This document shows, one piece after another, positions 1,501 to 63,358 of a stretch of DNA of 64,000 nucleotides. This DNA is from a phage. Where the stretch lies: sequence record PZ445436.1; one strand, 5' to 3'. The position numbers and the translations under genes were made by a program. Position 1 is the stretch's first letter; each line of letters starts with the position of its first letter. The notes beneath the pieces are model-generated. The model worked only from the letters and a program-made list of their open reading frames with translations, searched no databases and was not told the origin of the DNA.

Positions 1501-1516
1501 GGTATTTTCCTCAGTA

Positions 1517-1532
1517 AGGGGCCGAAGCCCCT
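1517..1532 (-). other. intercistronic CUUCGG-tetraloop hairpin
   Basis: AGGGGC-UUCG-GCCCCU upstream of the SD of ORF 1213..1500. Confidence 0.6.
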
Positions 1533-1541
1533 CATTTTATT

Positions 1542-2380: not shown

Positions 2381-2413
2381 TTGGAAAATAAAAAAGGACT
2401 CCCGAAGGAGTCC
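2381..2413 (-). terminator. rho-independent terminator
   Basis: GGACUCC-UUCG-GGAGUCC then UUUUUUAUUUU right after stop of the 30.9-like ORF. Confidence 0.7.
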
Positions 2414-2418
2414 TCAAC

Positions 2419-12100: not shown

Positions 12101-14365
12101 TCATAATTTACAGGATGAACAATCTTCAGCTTTTGGAGTTTCTATTTCATAATCATCAGTACCAGAACCGTCACGTGTATTATGATAATAGAAATTTTTT
12201 CCGCCAAAATACCAAAAATACAAAAGGTCATCAATCATTATTGACATTGGAACCTTGCCTTTAGGGAAGATTTGGGGGTCATAGTATGTATTCGCCGAAG
12301 CTGATTGACAAACCCATTTCAGCATAATAGCTACCTGCGTAAGATAAGGTTTATTACCTTTCTTAGCTAATTTCCATGTATAGTCGTAAAGGTCTATGTT
12401 ATGCTCAATATTGGGCACGACCTGATTAAAGGAGCCCTCTTTTGATTCTTTAACAGAGACTGGTCCACGTGGAGGCTCGATACCGTTTGTACTGTTAGAA
12501 ACTTGGGAAGATGACTCACATGGCATAAGTGCTGATAATGTACTATTACGGATGCCAAAGAGCTTAAGGTCTTCCCGCAGCGCCGACCAGTCACAAACGT
12601 ATTTTGGAGCTGCGATTTGGTCAATCTTTTTATTGTACCAGTCGATAGGTAATTCGCCTCGAGACCAACGAGTGTCTGAATAATATTCGCAAGGTCCTTT
12701 TTCTTTGGCGAGCTTAATGGATGCTTTAATGAGTCCATACTGTAATCTCTCAAATAGTTCATGTGTTAAATCGTTAGCATCTTCATAAGAAGCAAAGTTA
12801 CTTGCCAGCCAAGCTGCATAGTTAGTAACACCTACACCGAGGTTACGACGCTTTTTAGCTTTTTCTGCTTCAGGAACTGGATATCCTTGGTAATCCAAAA
12901 GATTATCAAGAGCACGAACTTGAACTTCTGCTAATTCATTAATTTTATCTTGGTCTTGCCAATCGAAGTTATCCAGCACAAATGCAGATAACGTGCACAA
13001 TCCAATTTCAGCATCGGGGCTATTCACATCATTTGTTGGAATAGCAATTTCACAGCACAAGTTACTCTGACGAATAGGTGCCTTTTCACGAATAAATGGA
13101 GTATAGTTATTCGTATTATCAATGAACTGTACATAAATCCTTGCTGTTCCTGAACGTTCAGTCATGAGCAATTCAAATAGTTCACGGGCTTTAATACGCT
13201 TTTTACGAATATTAGGGTCTTTTTCTGCTGCTTCGTATAATTCACGGAAACGGTCTTGGTCTTTAAAATAAGAATAATAAAGCTCTCCACCCATTTCATG
13301 TGGACTGAACAAAGTAATGTAATCGTTCTTTCCAAAACGTTCCATCATCAAATCATTCAGCTGAACACCATAATCCATATGACGAATGCGGTTTTCTTCT
13401 ACGCCTTTGTTATTTTTCAAAACGAGAAGATTTTCAACTTCCAAATGCCAAATAGGATAATAAGCAGTAGCAGCGCCGCCACGAATTCCACCCTGTGAAC
13501 ATGATTTAACTGCAGTCTGAAAATGTTTCCAAAAAGGAATAACACCGGTATGGCGTACTTCACCCATGCCAATCTTAGAACCTTCGGCACGAATCATACC
13601 AACGTTAATACCAATTCCAGCGCGTTTAGAGATATATTCAACAATTGAAGCGGAAGCCTTATTGATAGACTTTAATGAATCACCTGCCTCAATAACAACA
13701 CATGAACTAAACTGTCGAGTCGGAGTACGGCAACCAGCCATAATAGGAGTTGGCAGTGAAATCTGTCGAGTAGATACCGCTTCATAAAAACGGATAACAT
13801 GTTTTAATCTATCAACAGGTTCATCTTGATGCAATGCCATTCCAATAGTCATAAATGCAAACTGTGGAGTTTCATAAATTTGACCAGTGGTTTTATCTTT
13901 AACTAAATATTTTTCTTTTAATTGCATCGCCCCGGAATAAGTAAATTCCATATCCCGTTCGTGCTTAATTTTTGATTCTAAAAATGTAATTTCTTCTGCT
14001 GAATATTTTGACAATAATTCAGGGTCATATTTACCTTCATTTACACAGTAAGAAATATGGTCAATAAATGAACGTGGTTCATACTGCCCATAAACATGCT
14101 TACGAAGAGCAAACATTAAACAGCGTGCAGCTACGTATTGATAATCAGGCTCTTCAACTGAAATAGAATTCGCAGCAGCCTTAATTACAATGGTTTGAAT
14201 GTCATCAGTGGTCATTCCATCACGGAGATATGATTTAATATTTTCATATAATTCATAAGGATCTACTGATGTTCCCTCAGCTGCCCAAGATAAAACTTTA
14301 ATAATTTTTTGTGGGTCAAAGCTCTGAGAAACACCACTACTTTTGATAACATTAATTAATTGCAT
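12101..14365 (-). CDS. nrdA: ribonucleotide reductase large subunit
   Basis: 754 aa; ATP-cone N-terminus, active-site region NLCCEI, C-terminal CSSCKL redox tail. Confidence 0.95.
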   Translation of the reverse strand: MQLINVIKSSGVSQSFDPQKIIKVLSWAAEGTSVDPYELYENIKSYLRDGMTTDDIQTIVIKAAANSISVEEPDYQYVAARCLMFALRKHVYGQYEPRSFIDHISYCVNEGKYDPELLSKYSAEEITFLESKIKHERDMEFTYSGAMQLKEKYLVKDKTTGQIYETPQFAFMTIGMALHQDEPVDRLKHVIRFYEAVSTRQISLPTPIMAGCRTPTRQFSSCVVIEAGDSLKSINKASASIVEYISKRAGIGINVGMIRAEGSKIGMGEVRHTGVIPFWKHFQTAVKSCSQGGIRGGAATAYYPIWHLEVENLLVLKNNKGVEENRIRHMDYGVQLNDLMMERFGKNDYITLFSPHEMGGELYYSYFKDQDRFRELYEAAEKDPNIRKKRIKARELFELLMTERSGTARIYVQFIDNTNNYTPFIREKAPIRQSNLCCEIAIPTNDVNSPDAEIGLCTLSAFVLDNFDWQDQDKINELAEVQVRALDNLLDYQGYPVPEAEKAKKRRNLGVGVTNYAAWLASNFASYEDANDLTHELFERLQYGLIKASIKLAKEKGPCEYYSDTRWSRGELPIDWYNKKIDQIAAPKYVCDWSALREDLKLFGIRNSTLSALMPCESSSQVSNSTNGIEPPRGPVSVKESKEGSFNQVVPNIEHNIDLYDYTWKLAKKGNKPYLTQVAIMLKWVCQSASANTYYDPQIFPKGKVPMSIMIDDLLYFWYFGGKNFYYHNTRDGSGTDDYEIETPKAEDCSSCKL

Positions 14366-14682
14366 AAGTCCTCAACTTGAAAATCGTCTTTAAACAATCG
14401 GTTAACTATATGAGCTATTATATCACCATGACACGGCTTTGGTTTACATGTGCATCCTAGCCTCATTCCACGTAAAGGCTCTAAATGTGCTTTAGTTATT
14501 TCTCCGGATTTAATTCGACGTATAAAATCTTTTTTGAATAATTCAATGGCAGCCTCCCGGCTGCCAGCATCTTTACCGACGTAATTTCCCCAAAATGTAC
14601 CACGGTGAATATTAACATCAAAGTCGGATTTATATTTATTCACTACCCGGCATAGACGGCCCGGTTGGTAATAATTCTTCAT
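14356..14682 (-). CDS. hypothetical protein (nrdA.1-like by position)
   Basis: 108-aa ORF; Cys/His cluster [11 protein letters not shown]; start uncertain (47-nt overlap with upstream ORF). Confidence 0.45.
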
Positions 14683-26627: not shown

Positions 26628-26632
26628 ATTGA

Positions 26633-26660
26633 GGGAGCCTTCGGGTTCCCTTTTTCTTTA
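26633..26660 (+). terminator. terminator-like hairpin after gene 35
   Basis: GGGAGCC-UUCG-GGUUCCC then UUUUUCUUU; overlaps the gene 36 late promoter. Confidence 0.55.
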
Positions 26661-30636: not shown

Positions 30637-30663
30637 GGAGAGGGGCTTCGGCCCCTTCTAAAT
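30637..30663 (+). promoter_or_regulatory. gene 38 split ribosome-binding site
   Basis: GGAG 23 nt from ATG with AGGGGC-UUCG-GCCCCU hairpin in between. Confidence 0.7.
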
Positions 30664-36377: not shown

Positions 36378-36458
36378 TCACTGGCGTCCGAAGACGCCTT
36401 TAGTTTTAAGATTATTACGATAGAACTGCATCACGTGTTCGTTGTGGAAATTACTCAT
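36378..36458 (-). CDS. stp: Stp peptide (26 aa)
   Basis: Encodes [26 protein letters not shown], matching T4 Stp as recalled; 1-nt overlap with ndd stop. Confidence 0.8.
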
Positions 36459-39027: not shown

Positions 39028-39038
39028 AATTTTTCCTT

Positions 39039-39068
39039 AAAACAAAAGGGCCGAAGCCCTTTTGTTTT
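39039..39068 (-). other. long intercistronic hairpin (13-bp stem, UUCG loop)
   Basis: AAAACAAAAGGGC-UUCG-GCCCUUUUGUUUU overlapping upstream stop codon, followed by AAGGA SD. Confidence 0.6.
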
Positions 39069-39261
39069 ACTTGAATTGTGCAATTCTTTTCTCTAGACAT
39101 TCAGCATAAGATTTCATTGAGATGAACTGTGAAAGTAGCAGTTCTTGCTCAACTGCACTAACTGTTAGAAACTTTGCGCTTTCTAAAAATTTACTCAGTG
39201 CATTAATTTTGAGCATTAATTGATCGTATTCTTCTTTTACTCGTGCTTGATAACCTAACAT
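39067..39261 (-). CDS. hypothetical protein
   Basis: 64-aa ORF flanked by CUUCGG hairpins. Confidence 0.45.
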   Translation of the reverse strand: MLGYQARVKEEYDQLMLKINALSKFLESAKFLTVSAVEQELLLSQFISMKSYAECLEKRIAQFK

Positions 39262-39275
39262 AATTTTCCTTAGTT

Positions 39276-39291
39276 AAGGGCCGAAGCCCTT
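39276..39291 (-). other. CUUCGG hairpin immediately after rIIB stop
   Basis: AAGGGC-UUCG-GCCCUU then SD of next ORF. Confidence 0.6.
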
Positions 39292-40228
39292 ATTTAAATT
39301 GTTCAGTAACGTCTTCAACTACTTCGTATTGGCAGGTACGCATTTTAGCATCGTTGTAATCAATCGGAATTGATACTACATCACGCGGATGTACTTTAAC
39401 TTTTACGACTCGGCTGGTTGAACTGCCAAAGTGACGAATATAAGATTTAGAACACACATGCAGACCACGAGAACAAGTTTGTGTATCATCGTCATTCACA
39501 CGAGTACGCGGCATTTTAACTACTTTACCAGGACTGTTATCAAAGGTGTTTGAGTGACAGTCAAAGTAGTTGTCACGAACTACTTTCCAAGCATAGAAGT
39601 AACCATCTTCTGTAATTTCAATATCGTTTGCTACCAAGAAATCAAAGAGTCGAGATACCGCTTTTTGGCTTGGGTTTTCCAACAGATTTTCCAAGAACGG
39701 AAAATAAAATTCAAAGTTTTCGCCTTTTTCCATCGAGTCAAGAATACGATCAACCAAACCAGACCGCAATTCAATATTTTGATAGAACAAGCTTCCACCT
39801 TCAATTCGAACATCGCCGGAAATATATTTTTCAACAGCACGACGAACATTAATTTTTTGTGCCGCTTCTTCCAGCTTATCTGCTACAAGCAGATTAAGAA
39901 TTTCCTGGAAGTTTGAATGAGTATTAGGAGTTGCGTTATAAGTTACACCGTCAACAGTAATTGAAATGAATTTTTTAGATGCATTCCAAATAATGTCAGA
40001 TTTAGCAACTGGAGCAATAACTGCATCGCTATTAACTTTAATTGTAATATCACCGCTAATAGTAACTTTAGAGCGTTTAGCTTCTTCAGCATTTTTCAAA
40101 ACACGACGAATTGTGTCAACCGATACACCTTGCCAATCAGCCAATTCCTGTTGGGTGTAATTACCACTTGAATACAGCTTAACAATTTCAGCTTGTTCGT
40201 TTTTGGTCAGGCATTTAATATTGTACAT
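39290..40228 (-). CDS. rIIB: rIIB rapid-lysis protein
   Basis: 312 aa, matches T4 rIIB as recalled. Confidence 0.9.
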   Translation of the reverse strand: MYNIKCLTKNEQAEIVKLYSSGNYTQQELADWQGVSVDTIRRVLKNAEEAKRSKVTISGDITIKVNSDAVIAPVAKSDIIWNASKKFISITVDGVTYNATPNTHSNFQEILNLLVADKLEEAAQKINVRRAVEKYISGDVRIEGGSLFYQNIELRSGLVDRILDSMEKGENFEFYFPFLENLLENPSQKAVSRLFDFLVANDIEITEDGYFYAWKVVRDNYFDCHSNTFDNSPGKVVKMPRTRVNDDDTQTCSRGLHVCSKSYIRHFGSSTSRVVKVKVHPRDVVSIPIDYNDAKMRTCQYEVVEDVTEQFK

Positions 40229-44506: not shown

Positions 44507-44556
44507 TTATCCTCGTTTGGTTTCGGGAATATTATACTCCGGTAATCATAAAGCTA

Positions 44557-44574
44557 AAGGCCCGAAGGCCTTTT
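44557..44574 (-). other. hairpin upstream of gene 39
   Basis: AAAGGCC-UUCG-GGCCUUU; U-rich on both strands. Confidence 0.5.
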
Positions 44575-46948: not shown

Positions 46949-46978
46949 ATTATACTCTGGTCCCAAGAGTTTGTAAAC
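46949..46978 (-). promoter_or_regulatory. T4 early-type promoter
   Basis: GTTTAC, 18 nt, TATAAT; -10 inside GGGACCA/TGGTCCC inverted repeat. Confidence 0.6.
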
Positions 46979-47415
46979 TAGCTTACACGAACATTAATCA
47001 CTGCGCTGCGAGGAACTACAGAGTACTCTCCAGCATGAACTACGTTCAGAAGTTCAACACCATCTTCAATCCACTGATCAGTCACCCATCCACCCACAGG
47101 ATTCGCGAATGGACGACGAATATAAACTGCCTTACACAGTAGATCAGTTGGATCTTCAGGTTTTTCAATTTCTGTCAATAGACTAAAATCTTTTTCATAA
47201 ATAATAAGCGGTGATACCATTCCATAATAGTTTCTAATTTCAATATACATCATACCGATAAGAATTCCGCTATTAACACTAATAACAGTAAAAGGATATC
47301 CGCCAGTTAAAGCAAGAAGTTCACAAAACTTATTATGAGCTGTATTAGACAGTACCGGAAAATTCTTAATTTCATCAAATTTTTTCAATTGATAAACAGC
47401 ATTATTTTTAATCAT
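46978..47415 (-). CDS. hypothetical protein, paralogous C-terminus to 46413..46904
   Basis: 145 aa; DQWIEDGVELLNVV. Confidence 0.45.
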   Translation of the reverse strand: MIKNNAVYQLKKFDEIKNFPVLSNTAHNKFCELLALTGGYPFTVISVNSGILIGMMYIEIRNYYGMVSPLIIYEKDFSLLTEIEKPEDPTDLLCKAVYIRRPFANPVGGWVTDQWIEDGVELLNVVHAGEYSVVPRSAVINVRVS

Positions 47416-55300: not shown

Positions 55301-55335
55301 AAAAACGAAAAAAGGAACCCCGAAGGATTCCTTAA
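55301..55335 (-). terminator. rho-independent terminator after soc
   Basis: GGAAUCC-UUCG-GGGUUCC then UUUUUUCGUUUUUG. Confidence 0.7.
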
Positions 55336-59418: not shown

Positions 59419-59447
59419 AACAATCTCCTCATTTAACCAACAAGACT

Positions 59448-59477
59448 ACTATACCATAGTCTCGTTAGCTTGTAAAC
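59448..59477 (-). promoter_or_regulatory. T4 early-type promoter for dmd
   Basis: GTTTAC, 18 nt, TGGTATAGT; -10 flanked by AGACTA/TAGTCT inverted repeat. Confidence 0.65.
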
Positions 59478-60904
59478 TAAAATTTTAATTCATTCGCCAA
59501 AGCATCTAACTGAGCTCGGGTGGATTCATTTCTTTGATAGCGATTCTGTTCAGCCTGAATCTGCTGTGAACCTGCTACTTCACTCACTTCAGTTGGAGTA
59601 GAATCTTGTTCAATTTCTACCCATTTCTGATTTCCCTTTTGAACACCCATCAAAAACTTATTCCACTTATTCTTATCGCCATATCGTGATTTAATTTGCT
59701 TAATGAGTTGTTGTTCAGCAGCTGCTAGCTCCTCGGTTTCAATGACCGCAAGCATAAAATCAGCTGTTGCTGGAAGACCAGCAGATTCTGCAATATCGCT
59801 CATGTTAACATCAGAAGAATCCCAAGCCTGTTTACCAACCTGTGCTGCAGTCCAAAGAACAGTTTCGGTTTCAACAGCTAGAGCACGCAATTCCTCTGCA
59901 ATAGCTTTAACAGTTGTGTAACTATTTTCTGAATAAACTCGGATGCGACAAGATTTACAAATACCTAGATAGTCGACAATAATGATTGTTGGAACAAAAT
60001 TCTTTTTGAGCTTCAATTCATTCAATAGAGACCTGAATGTGTTAGCATCTGCCCCACCAGTAGGATACTGTTTAACGATTAAACGGCCGAGAGTAGATTT
60101 CTCACGCCATTTTTCCATTTTTCCTTTATACTCAGCGTAAGAAATATGCCCATCATCAATGTCATCAAGAGAAACATCAAGCATATTAGCATCAATACGT
60201 TTAGCACAGACTTCTTCTGCCATTTCCATGGAAATGTAAAGAACATTATGTCCGAGCTGTAAATAATCTGCTGCCAATGAACACAATCCTAATGACTTAC
60301 CAACGTTAACGCCAGCCATTAAAACGTTCAGTGTTCCAGTCTCAGCTCCGCCTTTCGTAATTTTGTTTAGAATTCTGAGTTTAAATGGAACCTTACGAGC
60401 TTTATTCATATAAGATAGCCAACGTGCTTCGTAGTCATCCATCCAATCATGACCAACGTAACTATCAAATGAAATTGATAATGCTTGGCGCATGATGTCA
60501 GGAATAGCACCAACATCCGGCATTTTCTTATTTCGTTTTTCCGGAGGAAGTTCAGCATTAGTTTGAATTTCGATTATTTTAGACGTAGCATTAAACATCG
60601 CCCTTTGCTGAACATATTTTTCTGTTTCTTTTATTAACCAACTGTGGTCTTCCGGAGAATCAGCCAGTTTTGAAATAAGTGTTTTTACACCAGAATATTC
60701 TGTTTCAGTAAATGAACTATTTTCTAATGCAACATTTAACGCATTAATAGATGGAACGCTATGATACTCATTGACATGAGATTTAATTAATTTGAATGTA
60801 TTTTTAGCTGGACCACTTTCAAAATATTCTGAATCCATATATGGCCAAACTTTTGAAAAATAAGCTTGATCAAATATGAGATGAGAAAGAATAATTTCTA
60901 CCAC
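59477..60904 (-). CDS. 41: replicative DNA helicase gp41 (DnaB family)
   Basis: 475 aa; Walker A GVNVGKS. Confidence 0.9.
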   Translation of the reverse strand: MVEIILSHLIFDQAYFSKVWPYMDSEYFESGPAKNTFKLIKSHVNEYHSVPSINALNVALENSSFTETEYSGVKTLISKLADSPEDHSWLIKETEKYVQQRAMFNATSKIIEIQTNAELPPEKRNKKMPDVGAIPDIMRQALSISFDSYVGHDWMDDYEARWLSYMNKARKVPFKLRILNKITKGGAETGTLNVLMAGVNVGKSLGLCSLAADYLQLGHNVLYISMEMAEEVCAKRIDANMLDVSLDDIDDGHISYAEYKGKMEKWREKSTLGRLIVKQYPTGGADANTFRSLLNELKLKKNFVPTIIIVDYLGICKSCRIRVYSENSYTTVKAIAEELRALAVETETVLWTAAQVGKQAWDSSDVNMSDIAESAGLPATADFMLAVIETEELAAAEQQLIKQIKSRYGDKNKWNKFLMGVQKGNQKWVEIEQDSTPTEVSEVAGSQQIQAEQNRYQRNESTRAQLDALANELKF

Positions 60905-60913
60905 ACTTACTCC

Positions 60914-61276
60914 TTAAAAGAATTTAAATTTTTTCTTTGACCTTTTATTAAATGCATCTTGCAGTTGCATTGTAATACATTTTTCTACATGAGGAGCTAA
61001 CTCAGCTTTTCTTTCTTGGTCAAGAACAGCAAAGTCCATTACAACCTTTCCATCAACCCAATCCAGTTTAGTTACATACACTATATGCGTAGAACCATCT
61101 TCTAGTTTAATGACAATCTCCTGGATAACATTTTCCATAGCAGATTTAATTATCTTAAGAGACTCATTAAAAAGACGTTCTTTTCTTTCTTCTTCCCCCT
61201 CCGAAGAGGGGGATTCATCGATAATTTCCAGATCTAAATCTAAATCATCTTTATTCATTAAATTCTTCCATATCAC
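60914..61276 (-). CDS. gp40-like head vertex assembly protein
   Basis: 120-aa acidic ORF between uvsX and 41. Confidence 0.55.
   Translation of the reverse strand: MIWKNLMNKDDLDLDLEIIDESPSSEGEEERKERLFNESLKIIKSAMENVIQEIVIKLEDGSTHIVYVTKLDWVDGKVVMDFAVLDQERKAELAPHVEKCITMQLQDAFNKRSKKKFKFF
61194..61213 (-). other. intragenic CUUCGG hairpin inside the gp40-like ORF
   Basis: CCCCCUC-UUCG-GAGGGGG, encoding SPSSEGEE. Confidence 0.5.
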
Positions 61277-62432
61277 TTAACTGTTCGAGGTCAGTTTCTA
61301 AATCAGCAGCTGATTTACTTTTACTTTCTGGAGATTTAAATTTTTCAACCTTTGAGTTAATCAATTCATCAACTTCAGCTTCAACAATTTCATTGCTATC
61401 AATAGCACCTAACTGATAAGCACGTTTAATAGCATCTCGGAATGGTTGATGCTTAAATAAAGGACCCCAGAATGTAGTGCAGTTGGTATCTTTTGCACGC
61501 CAAGATTTTTCTTCGCGAATCATCTCACCGGTTTCTTCATCAAGAAATTCACGGGCATACCAGCCATTTTTAGGTTTTACTACAAATCCTAATTCTAGAG
61601 CCATATCTAACAATCCAGAATAAGGATCGATACCACCGTCAAATTTAACATCAATAAAGAATTTACTTTTTTCTTTAACGGTACGAGATTTTTCTACATT
61701 TAGAACAAATTGATACCCCTGAAGATCAGAACCATCTTTAATCTGGCGTTTACCGATAATGAATACGGTATCAGCCGAATACATTACGCCTGTACCACCT
61801 GTCATCACGGTTTTACTAAACATTTCAATTGTTTCAATTGTATGGTTAACCGCAACGCACGGAATATTTTTAATGCTAAAATAAGGAGTAACAATACGGA
61901 ATAATGACTTCAGTGATTTAGCACGAGTCATATCTGCCACAGATTTTTCATTCAAGGCATCTTCCGTTTCTTTCTTAGAAGCCATATTACCGATTGAGTC
62001 GATGAATACAATAACCTTTTCACCACGCTCAATAGCTTCAAGCTGGTTCACCATATCAATTTTCAGCTGTTCAACTGACTGGATTGGCGTATGAATTACT
62101 CGTTCCGGGTCAACTCCCATGGATCGCAAATAAGCTGGAGTAATACCAAATTCGCTATCATAGAATAGACAAACCGCGTCAGGATATTTGTTCAAATATG
62201 CCGCAACCATAGTCAAAGACATATTTGATTTAAAGTGTTTAGAAGGCCCTGCGAAAATAGTTAAACCAGACTGCATACCGCCATCAATCGCACCAGAAAT
62301 AGCAATATTAAGCATTGGGATTTTTGTACGGATTACATCCTTTTCATTAAAGAATTTAGATGTAGTCAGTTCAGCAGTCATTTTAGAAGTGGAAGCTTTA
62401 ATCAAACGGGATTTTAAATCTGCAATAGACAT
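61251..62432 (-). CDS. uvsX: UvsX recombinase (RecA/Rad51 family)
   Basis: 393 aa; Walker A GPSKHFKS; acidic C-terminus. Confidence 0.9.
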   Translation of the reverse strand: MSIADLKSRLIKASTSKMTAELTTSKFFNEKDVIRTKIPMLNIAISGAIDGGMQSGLTIFAGPSKHFKSNMSLTMVAAYLNKYPDAVCLFYDSEFGITPAYLRSMGVDPERVIHTPIQSVEQLKIDMVNQLEAIERGEKVIVFIDSIGNMASKKETEDALNEKSVADMTRAKSLKSLFRIVTPYFSIKNIPCVAVNHTIETIEMFSKTVMTGGTGVMYSADTVFIIGKRQIKDGSDLQGYQFVLNVEKSRTVKEKSKFFIDVKFDGGIDPYSGLLDMALELGFVVKPKNGWYAREFLDEETGEMIREEKSWRAKDTNCTTFWGPLFKHQPFRDAIKRAYQLGAIDSNEIVEAEVDELINSKVEKFKSPESKSKSAADLETDLEQLSDMEEFNE

Positions 62433-62509: not shown

Positions 62510-63358
62510 TTAATCAACTGCTATTGGATGAATAGCATTAAACTTATGAAATGCTTCTGATTTTTCTTTACGCGAAACACACATGCGAAGAACCTTTAGT
62601 GGTTCGTCTTCTTCACCCAACGATTTTCGTTTTTCAATATTAGAAGTTTTCCAACGAGCTTGCTCTGGAAACTCTCTATTGATTTGCTCAAGCGCTCTAT
62701 TATGTTTAGAATTACTACGAATTGAGCTGCACCCGCCAGGAGCTTGTGCTTTTCCAGATACAACCAGATATTTGAACAAGGCCAAATGCGGATAACCTTG
62801 ATTAATTAAATTGAGAAATGCATACATATCTTCGCATAAATCAATTTTTCCATACCCAATTTGTTCTGTCGTAAGTTTTCCGAGGTCATACCATGTATTC
62901 GTGAATCCGTATGAATTTTCACGATAATTACCCCAAGATGAAGTAATTTTAAAAATAGGTAGACGAGCATGGCCATGATAATACCCGCAATCCATGGCAT
63001 CTTCAACGTATTGAATCAATTCATAGAACTGTTCACGAGTTAATTGATTAACTTTATCTACGCAGCGACGATCATCTCTCTTTCGCATTGAACTCATACG
63101 AATAGTAGTATCATCGTCAATCATCCAGATTCGTTGACCTGCATACATATCAGTAATTGCTTTACGAGTACCGGCAATTCCGTTTACATCATCAGGAATA
63201 GTTATAATTTTAGCTCTAGACCCATAAGCATCATAATAAGCTTTTTCTTCGTGTTCACGCACTACAATATGCGGTTCATAATCAGTCGGAAACATATCAA
63301 GGGCAGAAACTGCCCCGACACGTTGATAACTTGGAATTACGAATTGAATCATTTCCAC
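62510..63358 (-). CDS. putative GT-A glycosyltransferase (candidate HMC-DNA glucosyltransferase)
   Basis: 282 aa between uvsX and 42 where T4 has beta-gt; DxD-type motif RIWMIDDDTTI; does not resemble T4 beta-gt as recalled. Confidence 0.45.
   Translation of the reverse strand: MEMIQFVIPSYQRVGAVSALDMFPTDYEPHIVVREHEEKAYYDAYGSRAKIITIPDDVNGIAGTRKAITDMYAGQRIWMIDDDTTIRMSSMRKRDDRRCVDKVNQLTREQFYELIQYVEDAMDCGYYHGHARLPIFKITSSWGNYRENSYGFTNTWYDLGKLTTEQIGYGKIDLCEDMYAFLNLINQGYPHLALFKYLVVSGKAQAPGGCSSIRSNSKHNRALEQINREFPEQARWKTSNIEKRKSLGEEDEPLKVLRMCVSRKEKSEAFHKFNAIHPIAVD

Follow-up and report, generated by a model that had tools for sequence, protein, structure and literature searches.

A C(UUCG)G hairpin embedded in gene 40 of a T4-type phage and its counterparts just downstream of uvsX in other phage genera

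The window analyzed here, a 64,000-nt stretch of phage DNA (record PZ445436.1), carries uvsX, gene 40 and gene 41 as minus-strand ORFs, with a C(UUCG)G hairpin near the start of gene 40. The motif CUUCGG at 61206–61201, a UUCG tetraloop with its C-G closing pair, is also read on the minus strand, placing it on the sense strand of all three genes. The features of the locus are as follows:

59477–60904, minus strand: gene 41, replicative helicase, GTG start (ORF list)
60905–61262, minus strand: the "41 5′UR", 358 nt, located by its published limits of "-358 to -1 relative to the gene 41 start" (Kim et al. 2025, PMC12152347)
60914–61258, minus strand: gene 40, head vertex assembly chaperone, 114 aa, ATG at 61258–61256 (ORF list, translation)
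61194–61213, minus strand: C(UUCG)G hairpin, gene 40 codons 16–22 (sequence and stem extension)
61213–61206, minus strand: 5′ arm of the hairpin, UCCCCCUC
61205–61202, minus strand: loop, UUCG
61201–61194, minus strand: 3′ arm, GAGGGGGA
61251–62432, minus strand: uvsX, RecA-like recombinase, 393 aa, stop codon at 61253–61251 (ORF list)

The ATG of gene 40 overlaps the uvsX stop (ATGAATAA), and the hairpin begins 37 nt past that stop and 45 nt into gene 40; a further 290 nt separate its end from the gene 41 start. The gene 40 start, the uvsX stop and the hairpin all fall within the 41 5′UR, where this is the sole perfect hairpin of −11 kcal/mol or below. The immediate region is very close to T4 (99.5% identity over 60900–61300), and across the 358-nt 41 5′UR only one base, outside the hairpin, differs from modern T4, so that the hairpin is identical in T4 proper. 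The window nonetheless represents a different Tequatrovirus isolate from T4: its UvsX is 100% identical to that of T2 and 90.5% identical to that of T4, and the best match to the wider region among the collection records is about 97%.

Both flanks of the locus hold something of separate interest. Upstream of uvsX, a 282-aa ORF (62510–63358, minus strand) matches Pfam TAGT (TET-associated glycosyltransferase; E = 1.2e-9) and occupies the place of segA and beta-gt in T4; this match, together with the T2-identical UvsX, suggests that the window carries a T2/T6-like DNA-glucosylation module. A few nucleotides past the gene 41 stop, a long hairpin (59435–59470, minus strand, −18.5 kcal/mol) is followed by AAAUGAGGAG and constitutes another intercistronic stem-loop directly ahead of a ribosome-binding site.

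Read as RNA from 61213 to 61194 on the minus strand, the gene 40 hairpin is U-CCCCCUC-UUCG-GAGGGGG-A. A preliminary description of this DNA had reported a very stable CUUCGG hairpin within the gp40 reading frame, and the folding bears this out: the predicted energy is −15.9 kcal/mol, and the hairpin appears in both the MFE and the centroid structures, whether 110, 111 or 358 nt are folded. The stem, described there as a perfect 7-bp G/C stem, is indeed perfect but not purely G/C, as one of those seven pairs is U-A; a further U-A pair closes the base, giving 8 bp in all (six G-C and two U-A). It is the local hairpin alone that is exceptional, since the fold of the whole 110-nt region is unremarkable (z = −1.1 to −1.8). 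As also described, the hairpin encodes SPSSEGEE, that is, S16-P-S-S-E-G-E22(-E23) of gp40. This part of the protein is a poorly conserved acidic N-terminal extension lying outside the Pfam domain (Phage_head_chap matches residues 44–99 only). At the same N terminus, an (Asp-Leu)n repeat (codons 5–10; window 61229–61246) has an in-frame 6-nt deletion in some close relatives, and this length variation fits an extension that is translated but loosely constrained.

No U-tract follows the stem on its 3′ side (the next bases are AAGAAGAAAGAAAAGAACG), and a terminator consensus scan did not call the hairpin. In an Rfam 15 search the top match scored 22 bits against a gathering threshold of 80, and all matches were at chance level. 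The late promoter motif TATAAATA does not occur within 59.3–62.7 kb, and sigma-70-like sites around the hairpin were not above chance. A RegB endoribonuclease site was considered and rejected: the GGAG (the loop G plus the GAG of the 3′ arm) is base-paired and is not conserved, Mosigvirus having GGAAGGGG.

Extra-stable C(UUCG)G tetraloop hairpins of T4 were reportedly described by Tuerk and colleagues in 1988. The gene 40 hairpin resembles them in its UUCG loop, its closing C-G pair and its location on the mRNA strand (a historical account of the T4 hairpins is given in PMC4371310). CTTCGG is strongly enriched in the window, with 35 occurrences against 12.8 ± 3.2 expected (about 2.7-fold; 35 was reached in none of 100 shuffles), and perfect minus-strand hairpins of −15 kcal/mol or below number 9, against 0.45 in dinucleotide shuffles. 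Eleven CUUCGG motifs in the window are flanked by stems of 6 bp or more, and nine of these hairpins lie on the sense strand. The following are examples of these long-stem hairpins, together with the hairpin at the end of stp:

1515–1534, minus strand: long-stem CUUCGG hairpin
2394–2415, minus strand: long-stem CUUCGG hairpin
26631–26652, plus strand: long-stem CUUCGG hairpin
30640–30657, plus strand: long-stem CUUCGG hairpin
36383–36398, minus strand: stp hairpin, GGCGUC-UUCG-GACGCC, in the last codons (G-V-F-G-R) of the stp ORF at 36378–36458
39038–39069, minus strand: long-stem CUUCGG hairpin
39275–39292, minus strand: long-stem CUUCGG hairpin
44556–44573, minus strand: long-stem CUUCGG hairpin
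55312–55333, minus strand: long-stem CUUCGG hairpin

The eleven fall into three contexts: those with a U-run on their 3′ side (terminator-like), those with a Shine-Dalgarno sequence directly 3′, and those with neither. A U-run lies 3′ of the hairpins at 2394 and 55312 (terminators), and a Shine-Dalgarno sequence directly 3′ of those at 1515, 36383, 39038 and 39275. The last class has a single member, the gene 40 hairpin. Strong hairpins in the window are mostly intergenic, and the gene 40 hairpin is among the few within a real ORF; most of the T4-type C(UUCG)G hairpins here are intergenic with a U-run or a Shine-Dalgarno sequence on their 3′ side, whereas this one is coding and has neither. 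The stp hairpin, which the preliminary description had offered as a parallel, does lie in its reading frame, at 36383–36398 rather than 36384–36399, but its context is an ordinary end-of-ORF one: it ends 2 nt ahead of the stop, and a GAGG Shine-Dalgarno sequence and the ATG of the next gene follow directly. This is the usual T4 intercistronic layout, unlike the mid-gene location of the gene 40 hairpin. Two other strong minus-strand hairpins lie well inside ORFs, at 14547–14566 (−15.9 kcal/mol; ORF 14356–14682) and at 47086–47116 (−15.1 kcal/mol; ORF 46978–47415), and are possible further coding-embedded RNA structures.

For T4 itself the hairpin is a rediscovery, since it was annotated in 1985: GenBank X03099 (T4 uvsX, 1985) labels exactly this element "stem-loop structure pot. 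transcription terminator". The 3′ arm in X03099 is one G short (GAGGGG, X03099 350–368, vs GAGGGGG in modern T4 and at window 61194–61213). The missing G lies exactly in the G-run of the stem, its loss would put gene 40 out of frame, and the omission has the look of a sequencing compression at the hairpin. Apart from that G, there is no structural difference between the hairpin of the window and that of T4 as known from X03099 and from Hinton 1989, the latter as relayed by Kim et al. 2025 (PMC12152347). In that paper, the 358 nt upstream of T4 gene 41 served as a reporter leader; an in-vivo RNA 3′ end is placed immediately past a stem-loop in this 358-nt stretch, and the level of gene 41 mRNA in T4 is said to depend on read-through past the hairpin (both credited to Hinton 1989); more RNA ends at the stem-loop site in rho-mutant hosts; with GoF(D25Y), RNA again extends into gene 41; and the effect of GoF(D25Y) in the reporter is post-transcriptional, stabilizing RNA that carries the 41 5′UR leader. 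We infer that the stem-loop of these reports is the gene 40 hairpin, because it is the only strong one in the stretch, because X03099 marks a stem-loop at precisely this place and because the window differs from T4 there by a single nucleotide. It goes unmentioned in Virology Journal reviews of T4 mRNA decay, of late transcription and of prereplicative transcription, and a literature search for Term-seq of T4 found none.

The stem is spelled in the rarest codons of the genome: CCC provides 3% of Pro, GGG 6% of Gly and GAG 14% of Glu codons, and TCC and TCG each about 5% of Ser codons. Only two of the stem pairs consist of third-codon positions, and the chance of finding C-G at both, given the peptide, is about 2e-5. 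Each of the two shows one paired synonymous switch from C-G to U-A, in Mosigvirus (CCC/GAG to CCU/GAA) and in a Klebsiella phage (TCC/GGG to TCU/GGA, with a GGAA loop). Conservation of the stem in relatives had been set beforehand as a check on the hairpin, and it was found: wherever a lineage has the P-S-x-E-G peptide the stem is intact, with compensatory synonymous changes at both third-position pairs. The loops among these lineages are UUCG, UUUG, UCAG and GGAA, and gene 40 third positions outside the hairpin are only 44–63% conserved. Comparison among the relatives shows that it is the RNA structure, and not the gp40 peptide, that is under selection.

The formal statistics are less striking. 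In a count over the alignment, 90.8% of cells were paired, two pairs had double changes, and one shuffle in 500 exceeded the covariation score; when the C/G-rich arms are slid out of register, the scores are about as high as for the true one. We regard the formal covariation as supportive but modest, a weakness due to the shortness of the stem and the homopolymeric make-up of its arms. A metagenome scan added almost no diversity, and a broad gp40 alignment was too divergent for a pattern search.

Position proved to be more informative. We took the uvsX stop as the anchor in 19 lineages and asked for a perfect hairpin of −10.8 kcal/mol or below starting between −10 and +60 nt of that stop. Seventeen of the 19 have one, in most cases at −13 kcal/mol or below, and full folding recovered all 17. 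They comprise at least 11 non-homologous sequences and lie in gene 40, in gene 41, in unrelated ORFs or in spacers:

Tequatrovirus, Mosigvirus, Karamvirus, Gelderlandvirus: T4-type hairpin within gene 40
Marfavirus: 11-bp hairpin within gene 40, in a shifted register
Gaprivervirus: hairpin within gene 40, GCGGAGGGAGC-UAAG-GCUCCUUCUGU, encoding the peptide AEGAKAPS
Dhakavirus, Muldoonvirus: hairpin within gene 40
Slopekvirus: intergenic hairpin, UAUGGGGC-UUCG-GCCCCAUA, with a Shine-Dalgarno sequence directly after
Pseudotevenvirus: intergenic hairpin, GGGGGC-GAAA-GCCCCC
Krischvirus and a Vibrio phage: intergenic hairpins with U-tracts
An Aeromonas phage: intergenic hairpin
Sinorhizobium phiM12: hairpin within gene 41
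An Ackermannviridae phage: hairpin within an unrelated ORF
A Campylobacter phage: hairpin overlapping the uvsX stop

The two remaining lineages are an Acinetobacter phage, with no such hairpin after uvsX, and a cyanophage, which has only an imperfect long hairpin outside this definition. Since 19% of gene stops in the window are accompanied by such a hairpin, 17 of 19 is far above expectation (binomial about 5e-11, for lineages that are not fully independent of one another), and the positional evidence is stronger than the covariation evidence. The loops include UUCG and GNRA types on the sense strand, and several lineages have G-U pairs; such loops and pairs on the coding strand indicate sense-strand RNA rather than DNA as the functional form. 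Separately, Karamvirus, a Klebsiella phage and Gaprivervirus have a second stable hairpin about 35–90 nt inside gene 41 (for example CCAAGCCUUC-UUCUC-GAAGGUUUGG; −10.7 to −13.8 kcal/mol), at positions 855–879, 845–869 and 873–903 of their respective records, with only a weak counterpart in the T4-type window.

The acidic N-terminal extension of gp40, about 35 residues long, is absent from the Krischvirus, Pseudotevenvirus and Slopekvirus proteins, and there the hairpin is intergenic; in Tevenvirinae, where gene 40 begins at the uvsX stop, the hairpin is part of the coding sequence. We read this most simply as an upstream extension of the gene 40 frame over a pre-existing uvsX–40 spacer and its hairpin. 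A broader scenario, which we hold tentatively and at somewhat less than even confidence, is that T4-like phages possess an ancient post-uvsX hairpin whose sequence has turned over in place; such hairpins occur here in genera of the Straboviridae and, beyond them, in the Ackermannviridae phage, the Campylobacter phage and the rhizobiophage. Gene 40 of the Tevenvirinae would have grown over the spacer, "P-S-S-E-G-E" would be a translated hairpin, and it may be at this point that Rho and GoF variants alter the balance of helicase (gene 41) mRNA. Given the U-tracts in two of the lineages (Krischvirus and the Vibrio phage), a true terminator may have been the ancestral form. Functionally, the gene 40 hairpin appears to belong to the 3′ end of the uvsX cistron.

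Published RNA-seq, at gene-level resolution only, allows an estimate of how many transcripts pass the hairpin. For wild-type T4 in wild-type E. coli B606 at 5 min, the densities are 46.0 reads per nt for uvsX, 39.8 for gene 40 and 43.1 for gene 41 (PMC6024815 Table S1), and over six conditions the ratio of gene 40 to uvsX is 0.77–0.88 and that of gene 41 to uvsX 0.88–1.06. Judged from these densities, at least about 80–90% of transcripts read through. The substantial downstream drop expected of an intrinsic terminator is not seen at 5 min in the wild-type host, nor is any large difference in stability between uvsX and genes 40 and 41 visible in the RNA-seq density. A strong attenuator, with uvsX far above gene 41, is rejected by this nearly flat coverage, at least for the early part of infection. 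The near-flat density therefore means that the hairpin is not an efficient terminator and that 3′-end formation is a minority event early in wild-type infection. The preliminary description had considered a terminator unlikely for want of a U tract, and the bases that follow the stem, the silent scan and the coverage all agree with that judgment.

Intercistronic stem-loops that block 3′-to-5′ exonucleases are known to shape segmental mRNA stability in operons, examples being the REP elements in malEFG and the Rhodobacter puf operon. The gene 40 hairpin resembles these in lying just 3′ of one cistron, in probably having the reported T4 RNA 3′ end at its base and in coexisting with read-through; it differs from malEFG and puf in lying inside the frame of the next cistron and in the nearly flat steady-state RNA-seq at 5 min. 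We think it probable that the hairpin of the uvsX-40-41 transcript marks an RNA 3′ end shortly past uvsX and shields it, and we favor stalled exonucleolytic trimming as the way this end arises. Once transcribed, the uvsX-40-41 RNA would fold into the extra-stable C(UUCG)G stem-loop, and a minority of transcripts would end at the base of the stem. By the most likely route, decay or termination would start further downstream and 3′-to-5′ exonucleases (PNPase, RNase II) would come to a halt at the stem; weak termination induced by the hairpin may play a part too, and most transcripts would read through into genes 40 and 41. The benefit would fall to the uvsX mRNA, and the stem-loop does lie just 3′ of the cistron to be protected, 37 nt past its stop. 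Because the overlap of uvsX and gene 40 in T4-type phages leaves no spacer, the element would have been accommodated within codons 1–22 of gene 40 by means of rare synonymous codons.

The blocking of exonucleases and the benefit to uvsX mRNA are what we infer beyond the structure itself, the selection on that structure, its position after uvsX and, from the T4 literature, an in-vivo 3′ end beside a stem-loop in the stretch. Distance, sequence and coding status all vary while presence 3′ of uvsX is constant, which fits a role for which any stable structure following uvsX would suffice. Trimming is favored because there is no U-tract and because GoF(D25Y) acts post-transcriptionally. The earlier suggestion that the hairpin could be a determinant of RNA processing or stability gains support from the conservation of the stem, from the non-homologous hairpins found in the same place and from the literature 3′ end.

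A leaky terminator or pause site, at which RNA polymerase alone or with Rho, NusA or NusG would stop in a fraction of rounds and so attenuate genes 40 and 41 relative to uvsX, is the main rival but a less likely account, although it has the X03099 label "pot. transcription terminator" on its side, as well as a 3′ end directly past the stem-loop that is commoner in rho-mutant hosts (PMC12152347). Like intrinsic terminators, the gene 40 hairpin is G+C-rich (6 of 8 pairs are G-C) and lies downstream of a gene, and in Krischvirus and a Vibrio phage a hairpin with a proper U-tract occupies the homologous position. Unlike them, it has no U-tract, was not called by the scan and is read through at the rate given above; a U-tract is missing not only in the T4-type phages but in about 15 of the 17 hairpin-bearing lineages, and RNA density is almost flat across the site. 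The element might instead serve what lies downstream, as a 5′-proximal shield of the 40-41 mRNA after upstream cleavage or as a folding insulator between cistrons, in keeping with the many T4 CUUCGG hairpins directly 5′ of the next ribosome-binding site (1515, 36383, 39038, 39275) and with the Slopekvirus hairpin directly ahead of a Shine-Dalgarno sequence. We consider this improbable: the end reported at the stem-loop in the literature is a 3′ and not a 5′ end (PMC12152347), the anchor kept across lineages is the uvsX stop, whichever gene comes next, and the T4 hairpin lies 45 nt inside gene 40 rather than before its ribosome-binding site.

The remaining accounts, like the rejected RegB site, are poorly supported. 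The preliminary description had also raised a translational pause site, and a stable stem with five rare codons at codons 16–22 might indeed slow ribosomes early in gene 40 as a pause or ramp; nothing we found speaks for this otherwise, and we judge it very improbable. The equivalents lie between genes in Krischvirus, Pseudotevenvirus, Slopekvirus and Vibrio phages and elsewhere inside unrelated ORFs, and translation of gene 40 is therefore not the common factor; the rare codons are accounted for by the need for G-C pairs, and at +45 nt the hairpin is too distant from the start codon to affect initiation. Least probable of all, and largely refuted already, is the absence of any RNA function, in which case the stem would be incidental to a conserved peptide (S/T-P-S-x-E-G-E) or to a DNA-level signal, for instance a cruciform or a recombination site. 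With TCN serines, encoding S-P-S-S-E-G-E already determines six of the eight pairs, and P17, S18, E20, G21 and E22 do not vary among the closer genera. Yet Gaprivervirus, Dhakavirus, Muldoonvirus and Marfavirus have a hairpin in place with other peptides (in Marfavirus with a shifted register), the region is not part of the Pfam domain and is lacking in the gp40 of other genera, and a peptide constraint leaves aside the paired synonymous switches and the extreme use of rare codons. A role at the DNA level is equally at odds with UUCG and GNRA loops and G-U pairs, which work only in sense-strand RNA.

What is new relative to the knowledge of T4 is the family-wide conservation of position and the maintenance of the element within coding sequence. 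The comparative result, a modest one, ties the hairpin to the 3′ end of uvsX across many phage genera. The gene 40 hairpin is a clean natural case of a regulatory hairpin kept in coding sequence by means of rare codons and paired synonymous changes, and in it the long-running puzzle of rho(nusD), goF and gene 41 gains a concrete target that can be mutated.
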